Source: Escherichia coli
GTDB lineage: Bacteria > Pseudomonadota > Gammaproteobacteria > Enterobacterales > Enterobacteriaceae
Assembly (NCBI RefSeq): GCF_048403405.1
Contig: NZ_CP183129.1
Strand: one strand, 5' to 3'
DNA: 64,000 bases
Shown: positions 654 through 62,851 of the stretch, one piece after another
Layout of the letters: each line of letters starts with the position of its first letter
Numbering within the stretch: the first letter of the stretch is position 1
Program-made: the position numbers and the translations under genes
Notes under the pieces: model-generated
What the model was told of the DNA's origin: nothing
Databases searched by the model: none
What the model saw: the letters and a program-made list of their open reading frames with translations, nothing else

Positions 654-970
654 AAATTCTCCTGTAAAACGCGGAATATACCGTACCTCTTAGCGGGGAA
701 AAACAGGGTTATGCGGCAACGTCGAAATTAAATGTGATCTGCCACGCCTTTTATCACAAAAGTGTCTCCGGAAGTACGATGCAAATTTGCCTGGCAAAAT
801 AAGGATAATCAACATATTACGAATCGCTGCACACCTGTGCTGATGACTACTACGCAGAGAAACAAATGTGCAAGAGAAAGCGCTATTTCTCCCCATGCAA
901 AGAGTGAAAAATCGCTTTGAAAGGCCATCATGATGGGGTTATATCAGATCAAGCGGTGAGAAAGCGTATT

Positions 971-984
971 TGCACAAATGTGCA
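971..984. promoter_or_regulatory. Perfect 14-bp palindrome TGCACAAATGTGCA just upstream of the sorC start; candidate operator
   Basis: Palindrome read directly; ends 16 bp before the sorC ATG at 1001, with the AGGAGG RBS between them. Confidence 0.3.
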
Positions 985-1000
985 GAACCAGGAGGCGGCA

Positions 1001-1948
1001 ATGGAAAACAGTGACGATATCCGTTTGATTGTGAAGATTGCCCAACTCTATTACGAACAGGATATGACGCAGGCGCAAATCGCGCGCGAACTGGGTATTT
1101 ACCGCACCACCATCAGCCGCTTGCTTAAACGAGGCCGCGATCAGGGAATTGTCACCATCGCCATCAACTATGACTACAACGAAAATCTCTGGCTGGAGCA
1201 GCAACTGAAGCAAAAGTTTGGCCTGAAAGACGTTGTGGTGGTGTCGGGAAATGATGAGGATGAAGAGACTCAACTGGCGATGATGGGGTTACACGGCGCG
1301 CAACTGCTGGATCGCTTGCTGGAGCCTGGCGATATTGTCGGTTTTTCCTGGGGTCGCGCGGTGAGCGCACTGGTTGAAAACTTGCCGCAGGCGGGGCAAT
1401 CGCGGCAGTTAATCTGCGTACCAATTATTGGCGGACCGTCCGGTAAACTCGAAAGCCGCTATCACGTAAACACATTAACCTACAGCGCGGCAGCGAAGCT
1501 GAAAGGGGAATCGCATCTCGCAGATTTTCCGGCTCTGCTGGATAACCCCTTAATTCGTAATGGGATCATGCAGTCTCAGCACTTTAAAACCATCTCTGCC
1601 TACTGGGATAATCTGGATGTCGCCCTGGTGGGAATTGGCTCACCGGCCATTCGCGACGGCGCTAACTGGCATGCGTTTTATGGTGGTGAAGAGAGTGACG
1701 ACCTGAATGCCCGCCAGGTTGCTGGCGATATTTGCTCGCGCTTTTTTGATATTCACGGCGCAATGGTTGAAACGAATATGAGCGAAAAAACACTCTCTAT
1801 CGAAATGAATAAATTAAAGCAGGCGCGGTATTCCATTGGCATTGCCATGAGTGAAGAAAAATACAGCGGAATTGTTGGTGCACTGCGTGGAAAATATATT
1901 AATTGTCTGGTAACGAATAGCAGCACAGCTGAACTATTACTGAAATAA
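1001..1948 (+). CDS. sorC: SorC-family transcriptional regulator of the sorbose operon
   Basis: Track ORF 917-1948; likely true start is internal ATG at 1001 (MENSDDIRLIVKIAQLYYEQDMTQAQIARELGIYRTTISRLLKRGRDQGIV) preceded by AGGAGG. HTH N-terminus plus sugar-binding domain; first gene of a sorCDFBAME-like cluster. Confidence 0.8.
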   Translation: MENSDDIRLIVKIAQLYYEQDMTQAQIARELGIYRTTISRLLKRGRDQGIVTIAINYDYNENLWLEQQLKQKFGLKDVVVVSGNDEDEETQLAMMGLHGAQLLDRLLEPGDIVGFSWGRAVSALVENLPQAGQSRQLICVPIIGGPSGKLESRYHVNTLTYSAAAKLKGESHLADFPALLDNPLIRNGIMQSQHFKTISAYWDNLDVALVGIGSPAIRDGANWHAFYGGEESDDLNARQVAGDICSRFFDIHGAMVETNMSEKTLSIEMNKLKQARYSIGIAMSEEKYSGIVGALRGKYINCLVTNSSTAELLLK

Positions 1949-2017
1949 AAATCTTCCCGATGTTTACCGTAATAAAAATTACGGCGGGTCCCTATTATCT
2001 AAAATCAGGAGTCTGTT

Positions 2018-2824
2018 ATGCAAACGTGGTTAAATTTGCAGGATAAAATCATTATCGTCACCGGCGGCGCATCCGGTATTGGTCTGGCGATTGTAGAGGA
2101 ATTATTAGCACAAGGCGCAAACGTACAGATGGTAGATATTCACGGTGGCGATGGTCAATATGAAGGTCATAAAGGCTATCAGTTTTGGCCGACCGATATT
2201 TCCAGCGCCAAAGAGGTAAATCATACGGTAGCGGAAATTATCCAGCGTTTTGGTCGCATCGACGGTCTGGCCAATAACGCCGGGGTCAATTTCCCGCGTC
2301 TGCTGGTCGATGAGAAAGCGCCTGCCGGGCAGTATGAACTCAACGAAGCTGCATTCGAAAAAATGGTCAATATCAACCAGAAAGGCGTTTTTCTGATGTC
2401 GCAGGCGGTGGCGCGACAGATGGTCAAACAACATGATGGCGTGATTGTGAATGTTTCCTCAGAAAGTGGGCTGGAAGGCTCAGAAGGCCAAAGCTGTTAC
2501 GCCGCGACCAAAGCCGCGCTCAATAGCTTCACGCGCTCCTGGTCGAAAGAGCTGGGTAAGCACGGTATCCGTGTGGTCGGTATCGCGCCAGGGATTCTGG
2601 AAAAAACAGGACTGCGCACGCCGGAATATGAAGAAGCGCTGGCGTGGACGCGCAATATCACCGTCGAGCAGCTGCGTGAAGGCTATACCAAAAATTCCAT
2701 TCCTATTGGGCGCGCCGGAAGATTAGCAGAAGTGGCTGATTTTGTTTGTTATCTGCTGTCTGAACGCGCCAGCTATATCACCGGAGTAACCACTAACATT
2801 GCAGGCGGCAAAACGCGCGGCTAA
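2018..2824 (+). CDS. sorD: Short-chain dehydrogenase/reductase, sorbitol-6-phosphate dehydrogenase-like
   Basis: 268 aa with N-terminal TGGASGIGLA Rossmann motif and a downstream catalytic Y-x3-K motif (YAATK); RBS AGGAG upstream; position in operon. Confidence 0.8.
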   Translation: MQTWLNLQDKIIIVTGGASGIGLAIVEELLAQGANVQMVDIHGGDGQYEGHKGYQFWPTDISSAKEVNHTVAEIIQRFGRIDGLANNAGVNFPRLLVDEKAPAGQYELNEAAFEKMVNINQKGVFLMSQAVARQMVKQHDGVIVNVSSESGLEGSEGQSCYAATKAALNSFTRSWSKELGKHGIRVVGIAPGILEKTGLRTPEYEEALAWTRNITVEQLREGYTKNSIPIGRAGRLAEVADFVCYLLSERASYITGVTTNIAGGKTRG

Positions 2825-2833
2825 GGAGGCTTT

Positions 2834-3241
2834 ATGGTCAATGCCATTTTTTGCGCCCACGGCAAATTAGCCTGCGCCATGCTGGAATCGGTTCAGATGG
2901 TGTACGGCGATGCCAGGGTCGAGGCAGTTGAATTTGTGCCCGGCGAGAACGCCGGAGACATTGTGGCAAAGCTGGAGAAGTTAGTGAGCATTCACAATCA
3001 TGGCGAGTGGCTAATTGCCGTGGATTTACAGTGCGGTAGCCCGTGGAATGCAGCAGCGACGCTTGCGATGCGCAATCCGCACCTGCGGGTGATCAGCGGC
3101 CTTTCCCTGCCACTGGCGCTCGAACTGGTTGATAACCAGGACAGCATGAATGTTGATGAACTGTGTGAACACCTGACGCAAATCGCAAAGCAAACCTGCG
3201 TTGTCTGGAAACAACTGGCAACAGCGGAGGAGGATTTCTGA
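2834..3241 (+). CDS. sorF: PTS mannose/sorbose-family EIIA component
   Basis: 135 aa, MVNAIFCAHGKLA...; EIIA-Man fold signature with conserved His; RBS AAGGAGG. Confidence 0.8.
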   Translation: MVNAIFCAHGKLACAMLESVQMVYGDARVEAVEFVPGENAGDIVAKLEKLVSIHNHGEWLIAVDLQCGSPWNAAATLAMRNPHLRVISGLSLPLALELVDNQDSMNVDELCEHLTQIAKQTCVVWKQLATAEEDF

Positions 3242-3735
3242 TGAACATTACGCTCGCCCGCATTGATGACCGCCTGATCCACGGTCAGGTCACTACCGTC
3301 TGGTCGAAAGTGGCTAACGCCCAGCGCATTATTATCTGCAATGACGAAGTTTATAACGATGAAGTTCGCCGGACATTATTGCGTCAGGCTGCGCCACCGG
3401 GAATGAAGGTTAACGTGGTCAATATTGAAAAAGCCGTCGCGGTTTATCACAACCCGCAATATCAGGACGAAACCGTTTTTTATCTTTTCACTCGCCCACA
3501 GGATGCCTTAGCGATGGTTCGCCAGGGGGTAAAAATAGACACCCTGAATATTGGCGGCATGGCCTGGCGGCCCGGTAAAAAACAGTTAACCAAAGCGGTT
3601 TCATTAGATGATGATGATATTAACGCATTTTATGAGTTAAATAATCTTGGCGTCATACTGGATTTACGCGTCGTAGCGTCAGATCCCTCAATCAATATTA
3701 TCGACAAAATAAACGAACAGTTAATCGCAAATTAA
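3241..3735 (+). CDS. sorB: PTS mannose/sorbose-family EIIB component
   Basis: 164 aa, MNITLARIDDRLIHGQV... (EIIB-Man motif with phosphorylatable His); start overlaps sorF stop (TGATG). Confidence 0.8.
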   Translation: MNITLARIDDRLIHGQVTTVWSKVANAQRIIICNDEVYNDEVRRTLLRQAAPPGMKVNVVNIEKAVAVYHNPQYQDETVFYLFTRPQDALAMVRQGVKIDTLNIGGMAWRPGKKQLTKAVSLDDDDINAFYELNNLGVILDLRVVASDPSINIIDKINEQLIAN

Positions 3736-3800
3736 ATAATAGCGCCTGTGTACATATGCTTTAACAGGCAGGGATGACGACACTTAAAAGGTGACAAATC

Positions 3801-4598
3801 ATGGAAATAAGTACCCTACAAATCATTGCTATATTTCTTTTTTCCTGTATTGCCGGAATGGGCAGCGTGCTGGATGAATTTCAGACTCATCGCCCGTTAA
3901 TTGCCTGTACGGTGATTGGTTTAATTCTCGGTGATTTAAAAACCGGAATAATACTCGGTGGTACGCTGGAATTGATAGCTCTCGGCTGGATGAACGTCGG
4001 CGCGGCGCAATCTCCAGATTCTGCACTCGCCAGCATAATCTCCGCCATTCTGGTTATCGTTGGTCAGCAAAGCATCGCCACCGGAATCGCCATCGCGTTG
4101 CCTGTGGCTGCGGCAGGCCAGGTGCTGACGGTGTTTGCCCGTACCATCACAGTAGTGTTCCAGCACGCGGCGGATAAAGCAGCAGAAGAGGCGCGGTTTC
4201 GCACTCTCGATATTCTGCATGTCTCCGCGCTTGGCGTGCAGGCGCTGCGCGTTGCTATTCCGGCACTGATTGTCTCGCTGTTCGTCAGCGCCGATATGGT
4301 CAGCAATATGTTAAACGCCATTCCCGAATTTGTGACCCGAGGACTACAGATTGCTGGCGGTTTTATCGTGGTGGTCGGTTACGCCATGGTGCTACGTATG
4401 ATGGGCGTGAAATATTTGATGCCTTTCTTTTTCCTCGGTTTCCTCGCAGGTGGCTACCTCGATCTCAGTCTGCTGGCGTTCGGTGGCGTCGGCGTGATCA
4501 TGGCCCTGCTCTACATCCAGCTAAATCCACAGTGGCGTAAAGCTGAACCTCAACTCCAGGCCACCGCCTCCACCGCCCTTGACCAACTTGACGATTAA
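3801..4598 (+). CDS. sorA: PTS mannose/sorbose-family EIIC membrane component
   Basis: 265 aa hydrophobic multi-pass protein, ManY-like. Confidence 0.8.
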   Translation: MEISTLQIIAIFLFSCIAGMGSVLDEFQTHRPLIACTVIGLILGDLKTGIILGGTLELIALGWMNVGAAQSPDSALASIISAILVIVGQQSIATGIAIALPVAAAGQVLTVFARTITVVFQHAADKAAEEARFRTLDILHVSALGVQALRVAIPALIVSLFVSADMVSNMLNAIPEFVTRGLQIAGGFIVVVGYAMVLRMMGVKYLMPFFFLGFLAGGYLDLSLLAFGGVGVIMALLYIQLNPQWRKAEPQLQATASTALDQLDD

Positions 4599-4608
4599 CG
4601 GAGCCATC

Positions 4609-5433
4609 ATGGAACAGAGAAAAATTACACGCAGCGATCTGGTGAGCATGTTTCTGCGCTCCAACCTGCAACAGGCGTCCTTTAACTTTGAACGTATTCA
4701 CGGGCTGGGTTTTTGCTACGACATGATCCCCGCCATCAAGCGACTTTACCCATTAAAAGAGGATCAGGTTGCGGCGCTCAGGCGACACCTGGTGTTCTTC
4801 AATACCACGCCAGCCGTATGTGGCCCGGTCATCGGCGTCACTGCCGCCATGGAAGAGGCGCGGGCCAACGGCGCGGAAATTGATGACGGTACCATTAACG
4901 GCATCAAAGTCGGTCTGATGGGACCATTGGCAGGAGTTGGCGATCCACTGGTCTGGGGAACGCTGCGCCCGATTACCGCCGCGCTCGGCGCATCTCTGGC
5001 ACTTTCGGGCAACATTCTCGGCCCGCTGCTGTTTTTCTTTATTTTCAATGCGGTGCGTCTGGCGATGAAGTGGTATGGCCTACAGCTCGGCTTTCGCAAA
5101 GGGGTGAATATCGTCAGCGATATGGGCGGGAATGTGCTGCAAAAACTCACCGAAGGCGCGTCGATTCTCGGACTGTTTGTGATGGGCGTGCTGGTGACCA
5201 AATGGACGTCAATCAACGTACCGTTGGTGGTTTCACAAACGCATGCCGCCGATGGCTCCACCGTCACCATGACCGTGCAGAACATTCTCGACCAACTTTG
5301 CCCTGGTTTGCTGGCGCTCGGTCTGACGCTACTGATGGTTCGTCTGCTCAACAAAAAAATTAACCCGGTATGGCTGATTTTCGCCCTGTTTGGCTTAGGG
5401 ATTATCGGCAATGCGCTGGGCTTCCTGTCCTGA
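4609..5433 (+). CDS. sorM: PTS mannose/sorbose-family EIID membrane component
   Basis: Track ORF 4579-5433; start taken at ATG 4609 (MEQRKITRSDLVSMFLRSNLQQASFNFERIHGLGF, ManZ-like N-terminus) with GGAG RBS. Confidence 0.75.
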   Translation: MEQRKITRSDLVSMFLRSNLQQASFNFERIHGLGFCYDMIPAIKRLYPLKEDQVAALRRHLVFFNTTPAVCGPVIGVTAAMEEARANGAEIDDGTINGIKVGLMGPLAGVGDPLVWGTLRPITAALGASLALSGNILGPLLFFFIFNAVRLAMKWYGLQLGFRKGVNIVSDMGGNVLQKLTEGASILGLFVMGVLVTKWTSINVPLVVSQTHAADGSTVTMTVQNILDQLCPGLLALGLTLLMVRLLNKKINPVWLIFALFGLGIIGNALGFLS

Positions 5434-5484
5434 TTCTTCGCCCCGGCACGACTGCCGGGGCCATCGCTCAACATGAGGTGGTTT

Positions 5485-6714
5485 ATGAAAACAACAGCTC
5501 TGCGTCTTTATGGTAAACGTGATTTACGCCTGGAAACCTTTGATCTTCCTGAAATGCAGGAGGATGAAATCCTCGCGACGGTGGTCACCGACAGCCTGTG
5601 CCTCTCTTCCTGGAAAGAGGCCAATCTGGGTGAAAATCATAAAAAAGTACCCGACGATGTGGCGACCAACCCCATCATCATCGGCCACGAGTTTTGCGGC
5701 GATATTCTGGCCGTGGGTAAAAAGTGGCAGCACAAATTCCAGCCGGGTCAGCGTTATGTGATTCAGGCCAACCTGCAACTCCCCGACCGCCCGGACTGCC
5801 CCGGCTACTCCTTCCCGTGGGTAGGCGGCGAAGCGACGCATGTGGTTATTCCCAACGAGGTCATGGAACAAGATTGCCTGCTGGCATACGACGGCGAAAC
5901 CTATTTTGAAGGCTCGCTGGTTGAACCGCTTTCCTGCGTGATTGGCGCGTTCAACGCCAACTATCATCTTCAGGAAGGTAGTTATAACCACACGATGGGG
6001 ATTCGCCCGCAAGGGCGCACGCTGATCCTCGGCGGCACCGGACCAATGGGACTGTTGGCGATTGATTATGCGTTGCATGGACCGGTTAACCCGTCGCTGC
6101 TCGTCATTACCGATACCGACAACGACAAATTGAGTTATGCGCGCAAGCACTATCCATCAGAACCGCAAACACTGATTCATTATCTCAATGCCGCCGATGC
6201 AGCATTTGATACGTTAATGGCACTGAGTGGCGGTCACGGCTTCGATGATATTTTCGTCTTTGTGCCTAATGAAGGACTGGTGACTCTCGCCTCTTCCTTG
6301 CTGGCGACAGATGGTTGCCTGAATTTCTTCGCCGGACCGCAGGATAAACATTTCAGCGCGCCAATTAATTTCTACGATGTGCATTATGCATTTACCCACT
6401 ACGTGGGCACGTCAGGCGGCAATACCGATGACATGCGCGCAGCAGTCAAATTGATTGAAGAGAAAAAAGTGCAGGCCGCAAAAGTGGTAACACATATTCT
6501 TGGGCTGAATGCCGCGGGCGAAACCACGCTTGAATTGCCTGCCGTCGGCGGCGGCAAAAAGCTGGTGTATACCGGGAAATACCTGCCGCTTATGTCACTC
6601 ACGCAGATTCAGGATCAAGCACTGGCGGCAATTCTGGCGCGTCATCAGGGGATCTGGTCCGGTGAGGCGGAGCAATATCTGCTCACTCATGCAGAGGCAA
6701 TTTCCCATGATTAA
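5485..6714 (+). CDS. sorE: Zinc-dependent alcohol dehydrogenase-family enzyme, sorbose-1-phosphate reductase-like
   Basis: Track ORF 5473-6714; start taken at ATG 5485 (MKTTALRLYGKRDLRLE) after GAGGTGG RBS. MDR/zinc-ADH family, last gene of the sor cluster. Confidence 0.7.
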   Translation: MKTTALRLYGKRDLRLETFDLPEMQEDEILATVVTDSLCLSSWKEANLGENHKKVPDDVATNPIIIGHEFCGDILAVGKKWQHKFQPGQRYVIQANLQLPDRPDCPGYSFPWVGGEATHVVIPNEVMEQDCLLAYDGETYFEGSLVEPLSCVIGAFNANYHLQEGSYNHTMGIRPQGRTLILGGTGPMGLLAIDYALHGPVNPSLLVITDTDNDKLSYARKHYPSEPQTLIHYLNAADAAFDTLMALSGGHGFDDIFVFVPNEGLVTLASSLLATDGCLNFFAGPQDKHFSAPINFYDVHYAFTHYVGTSGGNTDDMRAAVKLIEEKKVQAAKVVTHILGLNAAGETTLELPAVGGGKKLVYTGKYLPLMSLTQIQDQALAAILARHQGIWSGEAEQYLLTHAEAISHD

Positions 6715-6872
6715 TCGCGCTACTTAACTCTGCATGTCGCTGGCTGGTCGCCGCGGCAACTTCGCGACCGGATGTGCGGCTGATTGCTGAAGCAGCACAA
6801 TTTGCATGAGAAGGATAAAAAATATCAGCGCCTTAAGGGGCGCTCAAATTGGTGGCAAAGTACACATTGTTT

Positions 6873-6975
6873 ATGCCGGATGCGGAATGAAGCCTTATTC
6901 GGCATACATAATCTCGAAAATTCAATATATTGCAGTTATCTGGTAGGACTGGTAAGCGTAGCGCATCAGGCAATG
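6873..6975. repeat. REP/BIME-like palindromic units between sorE and pepE
   Basis: Two REP-like units, GCCGGATGCGGAATGAAGCCTTATTCGGCATAC and GGTAAGCGTAGCGCATCAGGCAATG, in the intergenic region. Confidence 0.5.
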
Positions 6976-7095
6976 CTGTGTTTGTCATCAGTCTCAGCGC
7001 CCGGTGCAATACGTGACATCGTGAGCCATGTCAGTAAGTGGTTAAATTCGCAGTGGTAGCATGCCTCCCGTGATTTCTTACTAACCGGAGAAGTA

Positions 7096-14749: not shown

Positions 14750-18659
<3,910 letters not shown>

Positions 18660-18698
18660 TTAATTCGCCCCTCGCCTTACGGAAAGGGGCGTTGGTTG

Positions 18699-22988: not shown

Positions 22989-23432
22989 ATGGTTATTAGT
23001 ATTCGCCGCTCACGGCATGAGGAAGGGGAGGAACTGGTTGAGATTTGGTGCCGTTCTGTCGATGCCACTCACGATTTTTTATCAGCAGAGTATCGGGCCG
23101 AGCTGGAAGAGCTGGTGCGTTCCTTCCTGCCGGAAGCGCCGTTGTGGGTCGCGGTTAATGAGCGGGATCGGCCGGTTGGGTTTATGTTGTTAAGTGGGCA
23201 GCATATGGATGCGCTGTTTATCGATCCTGATGTGCGCGGCTGCGGCGTGGGTCGGATGCTGGTGAAGCATGCGCTCTCAATGGCCCCGGAACTGACAACC
23301 AATGTTAATGAGCAAAATGAGCAGGCGGTTGGGTTCTATAAGAAGGTGGGTTTTAAGGTTACGGGACGCTCTGAGGTGGACGATTTGGGGAAACCGTATC
23401 CATTGCTGAATCTGGCGTATGTGGGGGAATAA
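22989..23432 (+). CDS. yjaB: GNAT-family N-acetyltransferase
   Basis: 147 aa with acetyl-CoA-binding motif (RGCGVGRMLVKHAL). Confidence 0.85.
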   Translation: MVISIRRSRHEEGEELVEIWCRSVDATHDFLSAEYRAELEELVRSFLPEAPLWVAVNERDRPVGFMLLSGQHMDALFIDPDVRGCGVGRMLVKHALSMAPELTTNVNEQNEQAVGFYKKVGFKVTGRSEVDDLGKPYPLLNLAYVGE

Positions 23433-23504
23433 GCTGCCCCTGCCGTGCCTGCCCAGGCTGGAGAAGACGCGCCAGCGTCGCACCCGGCATTTTTTTCACC
23501 AACG

Positions 23505-23535
23505 CAAAAAGGCCATCCTGACGGATGGCCTTTCG
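23505..23535 (-). terminator. rRNA operon terminator downstream of 5S
   Basis: Minus-strand hairpin GGCCATCCGTCAGGATGGCC followed by TTTTTGCGTT. Confidence 0.7.
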
Positions 23536-23544
23536 CTTAATTTG

Positions 23545-23664
23545 ATGCCTGGCAGTTCCCTACTCTCGCATGGGGAGACCCCACACTACCATCGGCGCTA
23601 CGGCGTTTCACTTCTGAGTTCGGCATGGGGTCAGGTGGGACCACCGCGCTAAGGCCGCCAGGCA
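23545..23664 (-). rRNA. rrf: 5S ribosomal RNA
   Basis: 120 nt; reverse complement of ATGCCTGGCAGTTCCCTACTCTCGCATGGGGAGACCCCACACTACCATCGGCGCTACGGCG... matches E. coli 5S. Confidence 0.95.
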
Positions 23665-23758
23665 AATTCTGTTTTATTAACCCGCTTGTCGCCGGTTAAT
23701 TTAATCTGTATCAGGCTGAAAATCTTCTCTCAATCCGCCAAAACAGCTTCGGCGTTGT

Positions 23759-26662
<2,904 letters not shown>

Positions 26663-26855
26663 TCACAACCCGAAGATGTTTCTTTCGATCCATCATCGTG
26701 TTGCGAAAATTTGAGAGACTCACGAACAACTTTCGTTGTTCAGTGTTTCAATTTTCAGCTTGATCCAGATTTTTAAAGAGCAAATATCTCAAACATCACC
26801 CGAAGATGAGTTTTGAGATATTAAGGTCGGCGACTTTCACTCACAAACCAGCAAG

Positions 26856-26931
26856 TGGCGTCCCCTAGGGGATTCGAACCCCTGTTACCGCCGTGAAAGG
26901 GCGGTGTCCTGGGCCTCTAGACGAAGGGGAC
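26856..26931 (-). tRNA. gltV: tRNA-Glu (UUC) in the 16S-23S spacer
   Basis: 76-nt match to E. coli tRNA-Glu (GTCCCCTTCGTCTAGAGGCCCAGGACACCGCCCTTTCACGGCGGTAACAGGGGTTCGAATCCCCTAGGGGACGCCA) as reverse complement. Confidence 0.95.
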
Positions 26932-27015
26932 GTATCAGTCTGCTTCGCAAGACGCCTTGCTTTTCACTTTCTATCAGACAATCTGTGTGAGCACTGCAAA
27001 GCACAGTTCTTTAAG

Positions 27016-28558
<1,543 letters not shown>

Positions 28559-37916: not shown

Positions 37917-38072
37917 AATCGCTCCTTAGAGCCTGGTCCACCAGGCGTAATTGTTGAAGGCAGTTTGAGGCCGGACAGCGCGGAAAAACCGGAGCGTACA
38001 CGTAGTACGTGAGGATTTTGAGCACTGCCCGGCCTCAAAATGGCAAATAAAATAGCCTGATGGACCAGGCTC
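37917..38072. repeat. About 150-bp nested palindromic intergenic element between nfi and hemE (unclassified, MITE/RSA/ERIC-like)
   Basis: Terminal inverted repeats AGAGCCTGGTCCACCAGGC / GCCTGATGGACCAGGCTCT, inner inverted repeat TTTGAGGCCGG / CCGGCCTCAAA, central palindrome CACGTAGTACGTG; fills the whole nfi-hemE gap. Confidence 0.55.
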
Positions 38073-40559: not shown

Positions 40560-40745
40560 CGTTTGTGGGGCTAATTTCTTGTCGGAGTGCCTTAACTGGC
40601 TGAGACCGTTTATTCGGGATCCGCGGAACCTGATCAGGCTAATACCTGCGAAGGGAACAAGAGTTAATCTGCTATCGCATCGCCTTTGCGGCGATCGTCT
40701 CTTGCTTCATCCGTCGTCTGACAAGCCACGTCCTTAACTTTTTGG
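40560..40745 (+). promoter_or_regulatory. TPP riboswitch (thi-box) leader of the thiCEFSGH operon
   Basis: Aptamer at 40578-40661 contains the thi-box core CTGAGA...ACCTGATCAGGCTAATACCTGCGAAGGGAACAAG; expression platform runs to the thiC RBS. Confidence 0.85.
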
Positions 40746-46118: not shown

Positions 46119-46310
46119 GACAGAATGTAAGAACGTAAATTTATTCCAAGCCGCTACGGAAGATGAAAAACGCAAGGTTGTTGAAAGCGTTGTGTTTTTT
46201 TATGGTAGTGCCGTCAGCAGGAATGTTGTCCAGGGCGAAAAGCTTCTTCCTCGTTTCGCCCTGCCTTTCTTAATATTTCCCGTGAAGACTTTGCCCTCTG
46301 AATAACTCCC

Positions 46311-46359: not shown

Positions 46360-49300
46360 TTACTCGTTATCAGAACCGCCCAGACCTGCGTTCAGCAGTT
46401 CTGCCAGGCTGGCAGATGCGTCTTCTGCAGTCACCTGCGGTGCAGCCGGAGCTTCACCCGCAGCACGGCGACGCATACGATCCTGGTGGTACGCGTAACC
46501 GGTACCAGCCGGGATCAGACGACCCACGATAACGTTCTCTTTCAGGCCGCGCAGTTCGTCGCGTTTGCCCGCAACGGCTGCTTCGGTCAGCACGCGAGTG
46601 GTCTCCTGGAACGATGCCGCGGAGATGAAGGACTCGGTTGCCAGAGACGCTTTGGTGATACCCAGCAGATCGCGGGAGTAAGTTGCACCCACTTTGCCGT
46701 TCGCTTCCAGTTCGCGGTTTGCGATCTTGACGCGAGAGTATTCAACCTGTTCGCCTTCCAGGAAGTCGGAGCTGCCCGCGTTAACGATGGTAGCTTTACG
46801 CAGCATCTGACGAACGATAACTTCGATGTGTTTATCGTTAATCTTAACGCCCTGCAGACGGTATACGTCCTGTACTTCGTTAACGATGTAACGAGTAACA
46901 GCATGAACACCACGCAGACGCAGAATGTCGTGCGGCGCTTCCGGACCGTCGGAAATTACGTCACCACGTTCTACACGTTCACCTTCGAACACGTTGAGCT
47001 GACGCCATTTCGGAATCATCTCTTCGTACGGATCGCTACCGTCTACCGGGGTGATAACCAGACGACGTTTACCTTTGGTTTCTTTACCGAAGGAAACGAT
47101 ACCGCTGATTTCAGCCAGGATTGCCGGCTCTTTCGGACGACGTGCTTCGAACAGGTCCGCAACGCGCGGCAGACCACCGGTGATGTCCTTGGTACCGCCG
47201 GATTCCTGCGGAATACGCGCCAGGGTGTCACCAGAGCTGATCTGTACGCCATCTTCCAGCTGAACAATCGCTTTACCCGGCAGGAAGTACTGCGCTGGCA
47301 TATCGGTACCCGGGATCAGAACGTCGTTACCCTGAGCATCAACGATTTTCAGTGCCGGACGCAGATCTTTACCACCTGCGGTACGTTCTGCGGAATCCAG
47401 AACCACCAGCGAAGACAGACCGGTCAATTCGTCGGTCTGACGCGTAATGGTCTGACCGTCGATCATGTCAGTAAAGCGTACAAAACCGCTTACTTCGGTG
47501 ATAACCGGCATGGTGTGCGGGTCCCAGTTTGCAACGGTTTCGCCGCCAGCAACCTGTTCGCCATCGCCTTTCGCCAGTACCGCACCGTAAGGTACTTTGT
47601 AGCTTTCTTTGGTACGACCGAATTCGTCGATCAGTTTCAGTTCGGTGTTACGGGAAGTGATAACCAGTTTACCGCTGGAGTTCACAACCGACTTCACGTT
47701 GCTGAGCTTGATGCTACCTTTGTTTTTCACCTGGATGCTGGATTCAGCAGCCGCACGTGATGCCGCACCACCGATATGGAACGTACGCATGGTCAGCTGT
47801 GTACCCGGTTCACCGATGGACTGTGCCGCGATAACACCGATTGCTTCACCTTTATTGATGATGTGGCCACGCGCCAGGTCACGACCGTAGCAGTGCGCAC
47901 ATACACCAAAGTCGGTGTCACAAGATACAACAGAACGTACTTTAACCGCGTCGACAGAGTTCTCTTCCAGCAGGTCACACCACTGTTCGTGCAGCAGCGT
48001 GTTGCGCGGAACGAGGATATCAGCAGTACCCGGCTTCAGAACGTCTTCAGCAGTTACACGACCCAGTACGCGATCGCGCAGCGGCTCTTTAACGTCACCA
48101 CCTTCGATAACCGGAGTCATCATGATACCTTCATGAGTACCACAATCGTCTTCGGTAACCACCAGGTCCTGTGCCACGTCAACCAGACGACGAGTCAGGT
48201 AACCGGAGTTCGCAGTTTTCAGTGCGGTGTCCGCCAGACCTTTACGAGCACCGTGGGTGGAGATGAAGTACTGGAGTACGTTCAGACCTTCACGGAAGTT
48301 CGCGGTGATTGGCGTTTCGATGATGGAGCCATCCGGCTTCGCCATCAGACCACGCATACCAGCAAGCTGACGAATCTGTGCCGCAGAACCACGCGCACCG
48401 GAGTCGGCCATCATGTAGATGCTGTTGAAGGAAACCTGCTTCTCTTCCTGACCGTCACGGTTAATAACGGTTTCAGTTTGCAGGTTATCCATCATCGCTT
48501 TGGATACACGATCGTTCGCCGCAGCCCAGATATCGATAACTTTGTTATAGCGTTCGCCCGCAGTTACCAGACCAGACTGGAACTGCTCCTGAATTTCAGC
48601 AACTTCTGCTTCTGCCTCGGAGATGATTTCGTGTTTCTTCTCCGGGATGACCATGTCATCGATACCAACAGATGCACCAGAACGCGCTGCATAGGCGAAG
48701 CCGGTGTACATGATCTGGTCCGCAAAAATAACGGTCGGTTTCAGACCGAGAATGCGGTAGCAGGTGTTCAGCATTTTGGAGATTGCTTTTTTACCCAGCG
48801 CCTGGTTGACGATGGAGTAAGGCAGACCTTTCGGTACAATCATCCACAGAATGGCACGGCCAACAGTCGTGTCTTTCAGGCTGGTTTTCGCTACTAATTC
48901 ACCGTTAGCATCTTTTTCATACTCGGTGATACGCACTTTAACGCGCGCATGCAGAGAAGCCAGACCAGAGCGATACAGACGTTCTGCTTCTTTCGGGCCA
49001 GTCAGCACCATGCCTTCGCCTTTGGCGTTAACACAGTCACGGGTCATGTAGTACAGACCCAGTACAACGTCCTGAGACGGAACGATGATTGGTTCGCCGT
49101 TCGCCGGGGACAGGATGTTGTTGGTAGACATCATCAGCGCACGCGCTTCCAGCTGGGCTTCCAGCGTCAGCGGTACGTGAACTGCCATCTGGTCACCATC
49201 GAAGTCGGCGTTATATGCCGCACAAACCAGCGGGTGCAGCTGGATAGCTTTACCTTCGATCAGTACCGGTTCAAATGCCTGGATACCCAGGCGGTGCAGA

Positions 49301-50583
49301 GTCGGTGCACGGTTCAGCAGTACCGGGTGTTCGCGGATAACTTCGTCCAGGATATCCCAAACGACAGCTTCTTCGCGCTCAACCATTTTCTTCGCAGCTT
49401 TAATGGTGGTAGCAAGACCACGCAGTTCCAGCTTGCCGTAGATGAACGGTTTGAACAGCTCCAGTGCCATTTTCTTCGGCAGACCGCACTGATGCAGACG
49501 CAGGTATGGACCTACGGTGATTACAGAACGACCGGAGTAGTCAACACGCTTACCGAGCAGGTTCTGACGGAAACGACCCTGTTTACCTTTGATCATGTCG
49601 GCCAAAGATTTCAGAGGACGCTTGTTAGAGCCGGTGATCGCACGACCGCGACGACCGTTATCCAACAGGGCGTCAACCGCTTCCTGCAGCATACGTTTTT
49701 CGTTACGTACGATGATGTCCGGCGCAGCCAGATCCAGCAGACGTTTCAGACGGTTGTTACGGTTAATGACGCGACGATACAGATCGTTCAGGTCAGAAGT
49801 CGCGAAACGACCACCATCCAGCGGAACCAGCGGACGCAGATCTGGCGGCAGTACCGGCAGAACGGTCAGGATCATCCACTCTGGTTTGTTACCAGACTGA
49901 ACGAACGCTTCCAGCAGTTTGATACGCTTGGTCAGCTTTTTACGCTTGGTTTCGGAGTTGGTTTCGTTCAGCTCTTCACGCAGCTGCTCGCACTCTTGCT
50001 CCAGATCCATGCTCTTCAGCAGAGCCTGAATTGCTTCCGCACCCATCTTCGCGTCGAATTCGTCACCGAACTCTTCCAGCGCGTCCAGATACTGCTCTTC
50101 AGTCAGGATCTGCTGACGCTCCAGGTTGGTCATACCGCCTTCAATAACCACATAGGATTCAAAGTACAGTACGCGTTCGATATCGCGCAGCGGCATATCG
50201 AGCAGCAGGCCGATACGGGACGGCAGCGATTTCAGGAACCAGATGTGCGCAGTCGGGGAAGCCAGTTCGATGTGGCCCATACGCTCACGGCGTACTTTAG
50301 TCTGGGTCACTTCAACGCCGCACTTCTCACAGATGACGCCACGGTGTTTCAGGCGCTTGTACTTACCGCACAGGCACTCGTAATCTTTTACCGGCCCAAA
50401 GATACGGGCGCAGAAAAGGCCGTCACGTTCTGGTTTGAACGTACGGTAGTTGATGGTTTCCGGCTTTTTAACTTCACCGAAAGACCATGAACGGATCATG
50501 TCTGGCGAAGCCAGAGCAATTTTGATCGCATCAAACTCTTCGGTTTTAGTCTGCGCTTTCAGAAACTTTAATAAATCTTTCAC
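46360..50583 (-). CDS. rpoC: DNA-directed RNA polymerase subunit beta'
   Basis: 1407 aa, [80 protein letters not shown]...; NADFDGD active-site motif present. Confidence 0.98.
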
Positions 50584-50659
50584 GGATTTGCTCCCGTCGG
50601 AGTTAGCACAATCCGCTGCCGGGTTTTACCCCGACAGCAGTGACCTGTTTGAGCGAGAA

Positions 50660-53600
50660 TTACTCGTCTTCCAGTTCGATGTTGATACCCAGCGAACGAA
50701 TCTCTTTCAACAATACGTTGAAGGATTCTGGCATGCCCGGCTCCATCTGATGGTTGCCGTCCACGATGTTTTTATACATCTTAGTACGACCGTTCACGTC
50801 ATCAGACTTAACGGTGAGCATTTCCTGCAGGGTGTATGCTGCGCCGTATGCTTCCAGCGCCCACACTTCCATCTCCCCGAAACGCTGACCACCGAACTGT
50901 GCCTTACCACCCAGCGGCTGCTGAGTAACCAGGCTGTAAGAACCGGTGGAACGCGCGTGCATCTTGTCGTCGACCAGGTGGTTCAGTTTCAGCATGTACA
51001 TGTAACCAACGGTTACCGGACGCTCGAACTGTTCACCAGTGCGGCCGTCGTACAGGCGGATCTGACCAGAAGTCGGCAGGTCGCCAAGTTTCAGCAGCTC
51101 TTTAATTTCTGCTTCTTTCGCACCGTCGAAGACCGGCGTTGCGATTGGCATACCTTTGCGCAGGTTTTCAGCCAGACGCATAACTTCTTCATCGCTGAAG
51201 GTACTCAGGTCAACTTTCTGACGAACGTCAGCGCCCAGATCGTACGCACGCTGGATGAATTCGCGCAGTTTCGCGACTTCTTGCTGCTGTTTCAGCATGG
51301 CGTTGATCTTGTCGCCGATACCTTTCGCAGCCATACCCAGGTGGGTTTCGAGGATCTGACCGATGTTCATACGAGACGGTACGCCCAGCGGGTTCAGTAC
51401 GATGTCTACCGGCGTACCGTTTTCATCGTAAGGCATATCTTCGATCGGGTTGATCTTAGAAATTACACCCTTGTTACCGTGACGACCTGCCATCTTGTCA
51501 CCAGGCTGGATACGGCGTTTAACCGCCAGATATACCTTAACAATCTTCAGCACGCCCGGTGCCAGATCGTCGCCCTGGGTGATTTTGCGGCGTTTCGCTT
51601 CGAGTTTCTTCTCGAACTCGTGTTTCAGTTCGTCATACTGCTCAGCCAGCTGTTCCAGCTGATTTTGTTTCTCTTCGTCGGTCAGGCCCAGCTCCAGCCA
51701 GCGATCGCGCGGCAGTTTGTCGAGCTTCTCAGCTTCAACGCCACCGGCTACCAGCACAGCACGGATACGGCTGAACAGACCCGCTTCGAGGATCTGCAGT
51801 TCTTCAGACAGGTCTTTCTTCGCCTGTTTGAGCTGCATTTCTTCGATTTCCAGCGCACGTTTGTCTTTTTCTACGCCATCGCGAGTAAAGACCTGAACGT
51901 CGATAACCGTACCGGATACACCGTTTGGTACGCGCAGAGAAGAGTCTTTAACGTCAGACGCTTTCTCACCGAAGATCGCACGCAGCAGTTTTTCTTCTGG
52001 GGTCAGCTGGGTTTCACCTTTCGGCGTTACCTTACCAACCAGAATGTCGCCACCGGTTACTTCCGCACCAATGTAAACGATACCGGATTCATCCAGTTTG
52101 GAGAGCGCAGCTTCACCCACGTTCGGGATGTCAGCGGTGATCTCTTCTGGCCCCAGCTTGGTGTCACGGGACACACACGCCAGTTCCTGAATGTGGATGG
52201 TGGTGAAACGGTCTTCCTGAACAACACGCTCGGATACGAGGATGGAGTCTTCGAAGTTGTAACCATTCCACGGCATGAACGCTACGCGCATGTTCTGACC
52301 AAGCGCCAGTTCACCGAGGTCGGTGGACGGACCGTCTGCCAGCACGTCGCCACGTTCAACCGGTTCACCCAGAGACACACACGGCATCTGGTTGATACAG
52401 GTGTTCTGGTTAGAACGGGTGTATTTGGTCAGGTTGTAGATATCGATACCTGCTTCACCCGGATACATCTCGTCTTCGTTAACTTTGATAACGATACGGG
52501 AAGCATCCACGTACTGAACGACACCACCACGTTTAGCAACCGCAGTTACACCGGAGTCAACGGCAACAGCACGTTCCATACCCGTACCAACCAGCGGCTT
52601 ATCAGCACGCAGAGTCGGAACGGCCTGACGTTGCATGTTCGCACCCATCAATGCACGGTTGGCGTCATCGTGTTCCAGGAACGGGATCAGGGACGCACCG
52701 ACGGATACCACCTGCTGGGTGGATACGTCCATGTAGTCAACCTGGTCACGGCTGAACAAGCTGGATTCGCCTTTGCTACGGCAGGTTACCAGGTCTTCTA
52801 CGAAGTGGCCTTCTTCATCCAGGTTGGAGTTCGCCTGGGCGATAACGTAGTTGCCTTCTTCGATAGCAGACAGGTAGTGAATTTCGTCAGTTACAACACC
52901 GTCGGTCACTTTACGATACGGAGTCTCAAGGAAGCCGTATTCGTTAGTCTGCGCGTATACAGACAGAGAGTTGATCAGACCGATGTTCGGACCTTCAGGG
53001 GTTTCGATTGGACATACGCGACCGTAGTGAGTCGGGTGTACGTCTCGTACTTCGAAGCCTGCACGTTCACGGGTCAGACCGCCTGGGCCGAGTGCGGAGA
53101 TACGACGTTTGTGCGTAATCTCAGACAGCGGGTTGTTCTGGTCCATAAACTGAGACAGCTGGCTGGAACCGAAGAACTCTTTCACTGCTGCAGAAATCGG
53201 CTTGGCGTTGATCATATCCTGAGGCATCAGGGTATCCAGATCGCCCAGAGACAGACGCTCTTTCACCGCACGCTCTACACGTACCAGGCCAACGCGGAAC
53301 TGGTTTTCCGCCATTTCGCCAACGGAACGGATACGACGGTTGCCGAGGTGGTCGATATCATCGACTTCGCCTTTACCGTTACGGATATCGATGAGCTTTT
53401 TCATAACATCAATGATGTCGTCTTTGCTCAGGATACCGGAACCTTCGATTTCTTCGCGCAGCAGAGAACGGTTGAACTTCATACGACCAACCGCAGACAA
53501 GTCATAACGGTCTTCGGAGAAGAACAGGTTCTCGAACAGGCTTTCAGCTGCTTCACGAGTCGGCGGCTCGCCAGGGCGCATCATGCGGTAGATTTCTACC

Positions 53601-54688
53601 AGTGCGCTCAGACGGTCGTTAGTTGGGTCGACACGTAAGGTTTCAGAGATATATGGGCCGTGATCCAGATCGTTGGTGAACAGCGTTTCGATACGCTTGT
53701 GACCAGACTGGCTCAGCTTAGCCAGCAGATCCAGGCTCAGCTCCATGTTCGCAGCACAGATCAGCTCGCCGGTAGACTCATCAATATAGTCTTTAGCAAC
53801 CACTTTACCTGCGATGTACTCAACCGGGACTTCGATCAGTTTGACGTCGTCTTTTTCCAGCTGGCGAATGTGGCGCGCAGTGATACGGCGGCCTTTTTCT
53901 ACGTACACTTTACCGTTAGCTTCGATGTCAAAAGATGCGGTTTCACCACGCAGGCGTTCCGGCACCAGTTCCATCTGCAGCTTGTTATCACGGATTTCAA
54001 AGATAACTTTTTCAAAGAACAGGTCGAGGATCTGCTCTGTGGTGTAGTTCAGGGCGCGCAGAATGATGGTCGCAGGCAGTTTACGGCGACGGTCGATACG
54101 TACGAACAGGTTGTCCTTCGGATCGAATTCGAAGTCCAGCCAGGAACCACGGTAAGGGATGATGCGCGCGTTATACAGCACTTTACCCGAAGAGTGGGTT
54201 TTACCTTTGTCGGAGTCAAAGAAGACGCCCGGACTACGGTGCAGCTGGGAAACGATAACACGCTCAGTACCGTTGATAACAAAGGTACCGTTGTCTGTCA
54301 TGAGCGGAATTTCGCCCATGTAGACTTCTTGTTCTTTAATGTCTTTTACGGTGCCTTCCGGCGCTTCGCGCTCATAGATCACCAGACGCAGTTTAACGCG
54401 CAGCGGTGCGGAATAGGTCACGCCACGGATTTGACATTCCTGGACGTCAAACACCGGTTCGCCAAGGCGGTAGCTGACGTATTGCAGCTCGGAATTACCG
54501 CTGTAGCTCTGAATCGGGAATACGGAACGGAAAGCAGCTTCCAGACCATACTGCCCTTCAGGATCTTGCTCGATAAATTTCTGAAACGAGTCAAGCTGGA
54601 TAGAAAGGAGATAAGGTACATCCAGAACTTGTGGACGTTTACCAAAATCCTTACGAATACGTTTTTTCTCGGTATAGGAGTAAACCAT
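50660..54688 (-). CDS. rpoB: DNA-directed RNA polymerase subunit beta
   Basis: 1342 aa from ATG 54688 ([38 protein letters not shown]...); track ORF has an 11-codon upstream extension. Confidence 0.98.
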
Positions 54689-54932
54689 AGGGTTCCTCAG
54701 CTCGCTGACAAGTCGACCCATCTGTCCATTGAGCGGACAGTTTGTGCAACACTATTTTGTTGACCGGAAAATGGAACACTTTCCGCAATGCCTGTTGCTA
54801 TCACGCTTAAACCATTTCATTGCGATTTACACAGAACGGACGTCCTGTCGCAGTATATTAAGTCGTCGATAGAAACAAGCATTGAAAGGCACAGCAGTAG
54901 TCAAACAGTGTGAAACGCTACTGGCGCCTTAC

Positions 54933-54968
54933 AGCGCAAAAAGGCTGGTGACTAAAAAGTCACCAGCC
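54933..54968 (-). terminator. rplL-rpoB intergenic transcriptional attenuator
   Basis: Minus-strand hairpin GGCTGGTGACTTTTTAGTCACCAGCC followed by TTTTTGCGC, about 40 bp downstream of the rplL stop. Confidence 0.7.
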
Positions 54969-55007
54969 ATCAGCCTGATTTCTCAGGCTGCAACCGGAAG
55001 GGTTGGC

Positions 55008-60103: not shown

Positions 60104-60179
60104 TGGTGCTGATAGGCAGATTCGAACTGCCGACCTCACCCTTACCAAGGGTGCGCTCTACCAACTGAGCTATATCAGC
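60104..60179 (-). tRNA. thrT: tRNA-Thr (GGU)
   Basis: Reverse complement is GCTGATATAGCTCAGTTGGTAGAGCGCACCCTTGGTAAGGGTGAGGTCGGCAGTTCGAATCTGCCTATCAGCACCA. Confidence 0.95.
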
Positions 60180-60185
60180 ACATCT

Positions 60186-60260
<75 letters not shown>

Positions 60261-60376
60261 ATCCTGGAACTCGGCTACCTGATTTTCATTCTGCACTGAA
60301 TATCGAGAGAAGCTCTCTTTATTCGAGCCGGTAAGCGAACTTATCGTCTCGGGCTACGCCATCGCGTGGCCGAAAT

Positions 60377-60461
<85 letters not shown>

Positions 60462-60469
60462 GGACTTGA

Positions 60470-60545
<76 letters not shown>

Positions 60546-61888: not shown

Positions 61889-62851
61889 TTATTCCGCACT
61901 ACGCAGGGATATTTCACCGCCCATCCAGGGTTTTATTATTCCATCCTGCTCAAGTAATAAAGCGCCCTGTTTGTCTATTCCGCGCGAAATGCCAAATATT
62001 TCTTTATCACCAATGATAAGTTTCACTGGGCGATTAATAAAATTATCCAGCTTTTCCCAGCGCGAAAGATAAGGTGCCAATCCTTCTTGCTCGAAGAGTT
62101 CCAGCGCCGTGCGTAATTCACGTATGAGCATGGCCGCCAACGTATTACGATCGAGATTGATCCCGGCTTCCTGCAGCGTGATCCACCCTTGATTAACGAC
62201 ACTCTCTTCAACACGACGCATTGCCATGTTGATCCCGGCACCAATGACTATTTGCGCCGCATCGCCGGTTTTGCCAGTTAGCTCCACAAGAATGCCTGCC
62301 AGCTTGCGATCCTGCAGATAGAGGTCATTAGGCCATTTAACACGAACTTTATCAGCACCCAGCTTGCGTAATACTTCCGCCATCACGATACCGATAACCA
62401 GACTTAAACCAATCGCCGCCGCCGGGCCTTGTTCCAGACGCCAGAACATCGACAAATATAAGTTTGCGCCAAAAGGCGAAAACCATTTCCGACCCCGGCG
62501 ACCACGGCCAGCCTGCTGGTATTCTGCAACACAGGCATCGCCCGATTTAAGCTCTCCGATACGATCAAGAAGGTACTGATTCGTGGAGTCAATAACGGGC
62601 AGCACAGTTACACTACCGCCATCCAGCTGACCCAATATCTGTTCAGCATTAAGTAACTGGATAGGCTCAGGCAGGCTGTATCCTTTACCCGGAACGGTAA
62701 AGACATCAACGCCCCAGTCACGCAGTGTCTGCATGTGTTTATTAATAGCCGCCCGGCTCATTCCCAGCGTTTCACCCAACTGCTCGCCAGAGTGAAATTC
62801 ACCGTTCGCTAATAGGGCGATCAATTTCAGTGGCACGGTGTTATCCTTCAT
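61889..62851 (-). CDS. birA: Bifunctional biotin-[acetyl-CoA-carboxylase] ligase and biotin operon repressor
   Basis: 320 aa, [39 protein letters not shown]...; ends ...SLRSAE followed by tandem TAA TAA. Confidence 0.95.

Follow-up and report, generated by a model that had tools for sequence, protein, structure and literature searches.

Does the rpoB gene of this Escherichia coli strain contain any change from which resistance to rifampicin would be expected? Rifampicin binds to the beta subunit of RNA polymerase and inhibits transcription (PMC8492726; PMC3975073). Resistance at the level of the target is caused by substitutions, and rarely by in-frame indels, in three clusters of the subunit, which comprise codons 507-533 (cluster I), codons 563-572 (cluster II), and codon 687 (cluster III) (PMC11084559). 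It was in E. coli that these clusters were originally mapped, and the 81-bp region of cluster I holds most of the resistance mutations (PMC3975073). A medium with 50 mg/L rifampicin does not support the growth of wild-type MG1655 and hence selects rpoB mutants (PMC11084559). For the DNA analyzed here, a stretch of 64 kb (in the following called the window), it had been proposed from the sequence that positions 53090-53170 represent a wild-type cluster I with unchanged residues D516, H526, and S531, and that a rifampicin-susceptible genotype is to be predicted for this region. This proposal was followed up by an analysis of the complete gene, its operon, and its distribution among other E. coli genomes.

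The gene is encoded on the minus strand, which the original prediction had left unstated, and it extends from 54688 to 50660 (1342 codons plus the stop codon, 4029 nt). The protein was recognized as RpoB by the NCBIfam equivalog TIGR02013 with a score of 1990.8 bits (cutoff 801.15), and the match extended from residue 8 to residue 1339 and covered all 1238 positions of the profile. The best match in the PDB was the 1342-residue beta chain of E. coli, which has been used in 353 entries. The chains 5uaj, 5uaq, and 5uag, which we take to be engineered rifampicin-resistant mutants, scored about 3 bits lower than this wild-type chain. A chance resemblance would be of no concern for a gene of 4029 nt that is 99.33% identical to its K-12 counterpart. 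The start codon is the ATG at 54688, which is preceded by the Shine-Dalgarno motif GAGGAA and is the same start as that of K-12 rpoB. For these reasons the ATG at 54721, which opens the longer reading frame in the ORF list (54721..50660, 1353 aa), was ruled out as the start of rpoB. The context is canonical, rplKAJL-rpoB-rpoC, with all flanking genes intact and collinear with K-12. The rpoB gene of K-12 MG1655 (b3987, NP_418414.1) has the same protein length, start, stop, and operon order rplK-rplA-rplJ-rplL-rpoB-rpoC. Long open reading frames are also present on the plus strand, one opposite rpoB (50450-53638, 1062 aa) and two opposite rpoC (47776-48897, 373 aa, and 48949-50490, 513 aa). They are regarded as mechanical antisense reading frames inside strongly conserved genes, and rpoB and rpoC fully account for this DNA.

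All codons were numbered from the verified start, such that the first base of codon n is found at position 54688-3(n-1). With this numbering, the interval 53090..53170 corresponds exactly to codons 507-533, and thus to cluster I, also called the RRDR. Read on the minus strand, it begins with GGTTCCAGC, ends with TCCGCACTC, and encodes 27 amino acids. All 81 of its nucleotides and all 27 amino acids are identical to K-12, and the wild-type state that had been proposed for cluster I was thus verified. The same is true for the three individual residues, because the translation yielded GAC for Asp at codon 516 (53141..53143), CAC for His at codon 526 (53111..53113), and TCC for Ser at codon 531 (53096..53098), the last of which is replaced by the synonymous TCG in many other E. 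coli genomes. Only the peptide of 32 residues that had been given for codons 507-533 needs a correction. It does contain the residues of cluster I, but it runs on to codon 538 (position 53075) and thereby exceeds the interval by five residues, namely by the GPGGL of codons 534-538 (53075..53089). The other known sites were inspected as well. Cluster II (codons 563-572, 52973..53002) has no differences to K-12 and is wild type, and both translation and the comparison with K-12 showed that codon 687 of cluster III is a wild-type CGT for Arg (52628..52630). In the same way a wild-type GTT for Val was found at codon 146 (54251..54253). This valine is a rifampicin-resistance site in the N-terminal part of RpoB, and it was reportedly described as such by Severinov et al. 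in 1994.

To extend the analysis to the whole gene, a codon-by-codon alignment with rpoB of NC_000913.3 (b3987) was performed, which included clusters II and III, as the original prediction had proposed. Both genes have a length of 4029 nt, and the alignment contained 0 indels and 27 nucleotide differences (99.33% identity), all of which are synonymous. They are located in codons 175, 311, 312, 489, 499, 547, 576, 577, and 579, in codons 623, 635, 647, 694, 702, 717, 749, 846, and 847, and in codons 877, 893, 910, 1003, 1186, 1207, 1214, 1215, and 1302. None of the 27 differences is found in codons 507-533, 563-572, 687, or 146. At the protein level, RpoB is identical to K-12 RpoB at 1342 of 1342 residues, and the susceptible genotype that had been predicted for the region is supported by this identity. 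Substitutions elsewhere in rpoB, for example in codons 563-572 or 687, had been named as the observation that would speak against the prediction. They were looked for across all 1342 codons, and not a single amino acid change was detected. In the comparison of the whole rpoB with K-12, the positions known for resistance were free of non-synonymous changes and of in-frame indels. In contrast to rifampicin-resistant alleles of E. coli (e.g., D516V, H526Y, S531L/F, alleles with changes in cluster II or at R687, and V146F), the gene in the window encodes the wild-type residue at each of these positions. Compensatory changes to rifampicin resistance occur in RpoC, and rpoC, which encodes the beta' subunit and is co-transcribed downstream of rpoB, was included in the comparison (46360..50583, minus strand, GTG start, 1407 codons). 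It has 30 nucleotide differences to the K-12 gene and no amino acid difference, so that 1407 of 1407 residues are identical. A single RpoC mismatch in the gene-by-gene comparison of the span is an artefact, since the first residue, encoded by GTG, had been set to Met.

The frequency of this genotype was determined using 5,426 complete E. coli genomes. A full-length match to rpoB was present in 5,420 of them, and the DNA identity was 100% in 7. The 81 nt of cluster I were identical in 4,300 of the 5,420 genomes (about 79%), including REL606 and one O157:H7 strain. From the 1,120 genomes with a non-identical cluster I DNA three were sampled, i.e., AR_0089, TUM11356, and E2348/69. In all three the differences in cluster I were exclusively synonymous, and the exchange of TCC to TCG at S531 occurred in every one of them. 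E2348/69 has two further synonymous changes, GCA to GCC at A532 and CTC to CTT at L533. The RpoB annotation is the same accession, WP_000263098.1, in TUM14771 (the rpoB of which is 100% identical to that of the window), E2348/69, and TUM11356. AR_0089 (NZ_CP032265.1) has a different accession, WP_061158023.1, although its cluster I encodes only wild-type amino acids, and its RpoB should therefore contain a substitution elsewhere. As cluster I is identical in most genomes and the sampled variants are synonymous, the wild-type state of cluster I is what one would expect, and the result is an ordinary negative call.

The surroundings of rpoB were also compared with K-12. The window corresponds, in reverse complement, to positions 4,171,955 to 4,231,006 of K-12 MG1655, and the two are collinear, with the gene order murB-birA-coaA-tRNAs-tufB-secE-nusG-rplKAJL-rpoBC-thi-...-metH-yjbB-pepE-rluF. 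Forty of the 43 K-12 coding sequences of this span are present essentially at full length, with a few alignments being one residue short. As to the remaining ones, rluF is truncated by the edge of the window, and yjaZ and yjaA are absent. In K-12, yjaZ is located downstream of rpoC, while in the window 27 unrelated bases between the rpoC terminator and thiH (46281-46307) replace 947 bp of K-12 that contain yjaZ (htrC) and the sRNA gene sroH. About 3,717 of the 5,426 genomes possess the K-12 segment with yjaZ and sroH, and the absence of this segment is a common polymorphism. At the yjaA site (23427-23528) about 100 bp are found instead of about 520 bp in K-12, and yjaA is missing, while arpA is present (14762-16942). 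A Clermont phylotyping marker is represented by yjaA, and its absence together with the presence of arpA argues against phylogroups B2 and F; the other markers, chuA and TspE4.C2, are located outside of the window. The spacer between aceA and aceK (18650-18691) has a length of about 40 bp versus about 175 bp in K-12, where it presumably carries REP-type repeats. The birA gene (61889-62851, minus strand) has 320 codons here and in TUM14771 versus 321 in K-12. As the DNA alignment does not contain an indel, the last codon must have been turned into a stop codon, which is a trivial difference at the C-terminus. Taken together, the differences between the window and K-12 are ordinary strain-to-strain variation.

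The non-coding RNA genes were identified with Rfam, and the rRNA, tRNA, and riboswitch matches were as expected. A complete rRNA operon is located at 23547-28558 on the minus strand (16S, tRNA-Glu, 23S, 5S), and the spacer between its 16S and 23S genes contains a match to StyR-44. The rrnE operon of K-12 likewise includes a tRNA-Glu. A TPP riboswitch is present upstream of thiC (40573-40673, plus strand), and a cluster of four tRNAs is found upstream of tufB (60107-60545, minus strand), the K-12 counterpart of which is thrU-tyrU-glyT-thrT. In total, five tRNAs are contained in the window. In the spacer between rplL and rpoB, just 3′ of rplL (54942-55003, minus strand), a match to RF00630 ("Pseudomonas sRNA P26") was obtained with 74.5 bits (gathering score 36). 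It coincides with a hairpin followed by a T-run, and presumably represents the known rplL-rpoB attenuator/terminator.

Two insertions relative to K-12 were characterized further. One has a size of 6.3 kb, lies between rluF and pepE (688-7015), and is the operon for the utilization of L-sorbose. Its seven genes are all located on the plus strand (998-1948, 2018-2824, 2834-3241, 3241-3735, 3801-4598, 4609-5433, and 5473-6714). They encode a regulator of the SorC/DeoR type, an SDR sorbitol-6-phosphate dehydrogenase, the L-sorbose-1-phosphate reductase SorE, and the components IIA, IIB, IIC, and IID of a PTS of the mannose/sorbose family. With 2,865 of the 5,426 complete genomes containing it, the operon is common accessory DNA. 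The other insertion comprises only 142 bp (37930-38071, minus strand), is also absent from K-12, and is positioned exactly between the stop codon of hemE and the ribosome-binding site of nfi. It has perfect terminal inverted repeats of 11 bp (AGCCTGGTCCA...TGGACCAGGCT), is flanked by a 5-bp duplication of CTAAG, and has the potential to form a hairpin of very high stability (-80.2 kcal/mol, z = -10.6). The element was detected in 1,288 of the 5,426 genomes, with one to two copies each. One sampled copy with an identity of about 85% is located at a different locus, i.e., in the intergenic region of glnA and glnL. By these features it looks like a MITE, and it is possibly an "RSA" sequence. Should it be a low-copy MITE that has been mobile until recently, its hairpin could uncouple or attenuate the expression of nfi in this lineage, but we regard this as very improbable.

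The relationship of the strain was deduced from the genomes with an identical rpoB. These are TUM14771, GN02461, 4621, MS 69-1, TUM1226, OX030728, and GMF065, which are 100% identical to the window over the 4029 nt of the gene. The first six of them are also 100.0% identical over the sorbose island and over the 22 kb downstream; among the strains with this identity the maximal bit score was obtained by the top four over the island and by the top three over the 22 kb. In contrast, the identity of GMF065 to the window drops to 99.3% across the 22 kb downstream. The rpoB DNA allele is thus carried by a small human-associated lineage, which comprises the first six strains, and the closest relatives are human isolates.

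Several alternatives to a susceptible genotype had to be weighed. The strain could be resistant in spite of its wild-type rpoB if it had acquired a non-target mechanism outside of the window, for example an arr gene for a rifampicin ADP-ribosyltransferase on an integron or a plasmid. The human origin of the closest relatives speaks in favor of this possibility, and class 1 integrons are common in such a setting. Furthermore, enzymatic modification also confers resistance to rifampicin, arr has been found on hundreds of plasmids and integrons of Proteobacteria, and Escherichia belongs to the genera in which Arr sequences are concentrated (PMC8492726). However, no arr, rph, rgt, or rox gene is present in the 64-kb window, all segments of which are either collinear with K-12, or belong to the sorbose operon, or are short intergenic differences, and we consider a resistance of this kind to be unlikely. 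It would in any case be compatible with the finding, since the finding concerns the rpoB region only.

The remaining alternatives concern the gene itself, and both of them are far less probable still. Extra copies of rpoB do occur in some records, as two of the matches came from plasmids and a few assemblies had matches at as many as three places of a genome. It might thus be argued that the region represents a paralogue, pseudogene, or assembly chimera instead of the functional rpoB. This reading is effectively refuted by the full-length, uninterrupted reading frame with 0 indels versus K-12, by its position in the canonical rplKAJL-rpoBC order, where the neighboring genes are intact, and by the 100% identity to the rpoB of several complete genomes that have this gene as a single chromosomal copy. 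It could also be imagined that the 27 synonymous changes alter the expression or the folding of the beta subunit to such an extent that the sensitivity to rifampicin is affected, and the DNA allele is indeed uncommon, with only 7 of 5,420 genomes being 100% identical. Yet clusters I to III are free of these changes, and the divergence of 99.3% identity is at the level of ordinary polymorphism in E. coli. To our knowledge, no effect of synonymous rpoB changes on rifampicin sensitivity is known in E. coli, and this explanation can practically be neglected.

The interval is thus almost certainly cluster I of the chromosomal E. coli rpoB with a drug pocket that, as judged from the encoded residues, should be intact, and target-based resistance is not predicted. 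A polymerase identical to that of MG1655 would have an intact drug pocket, and from established knowledge an equal sensitivity to the drug would be expected. As RpoB is identical to MG1655 RpoB, no resistance at the target site is predicted. Owing to its outer membrane, E. coli has an intrinsic sensitivity to rifampicin that is only moderate even in the wild type. The term "susceptible", as predicted here, means without target-site resistance; it covers the drug target alone, and the window represents 64 kb of a genome of roughly 5 Mb, the rest of which could encode rifamycin-modifying enzymes (Arr, Rph, and others) or changes in efflux or permeability. The use of the result is one of bookkeeping, i.e., a correct negative call for target-site resistance, which has been extended from cluster I to the whole of RpoB and to RpoC. 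For surveillance it means that any rifampicin resistance of this strain would need to have a source outside of rpoB.
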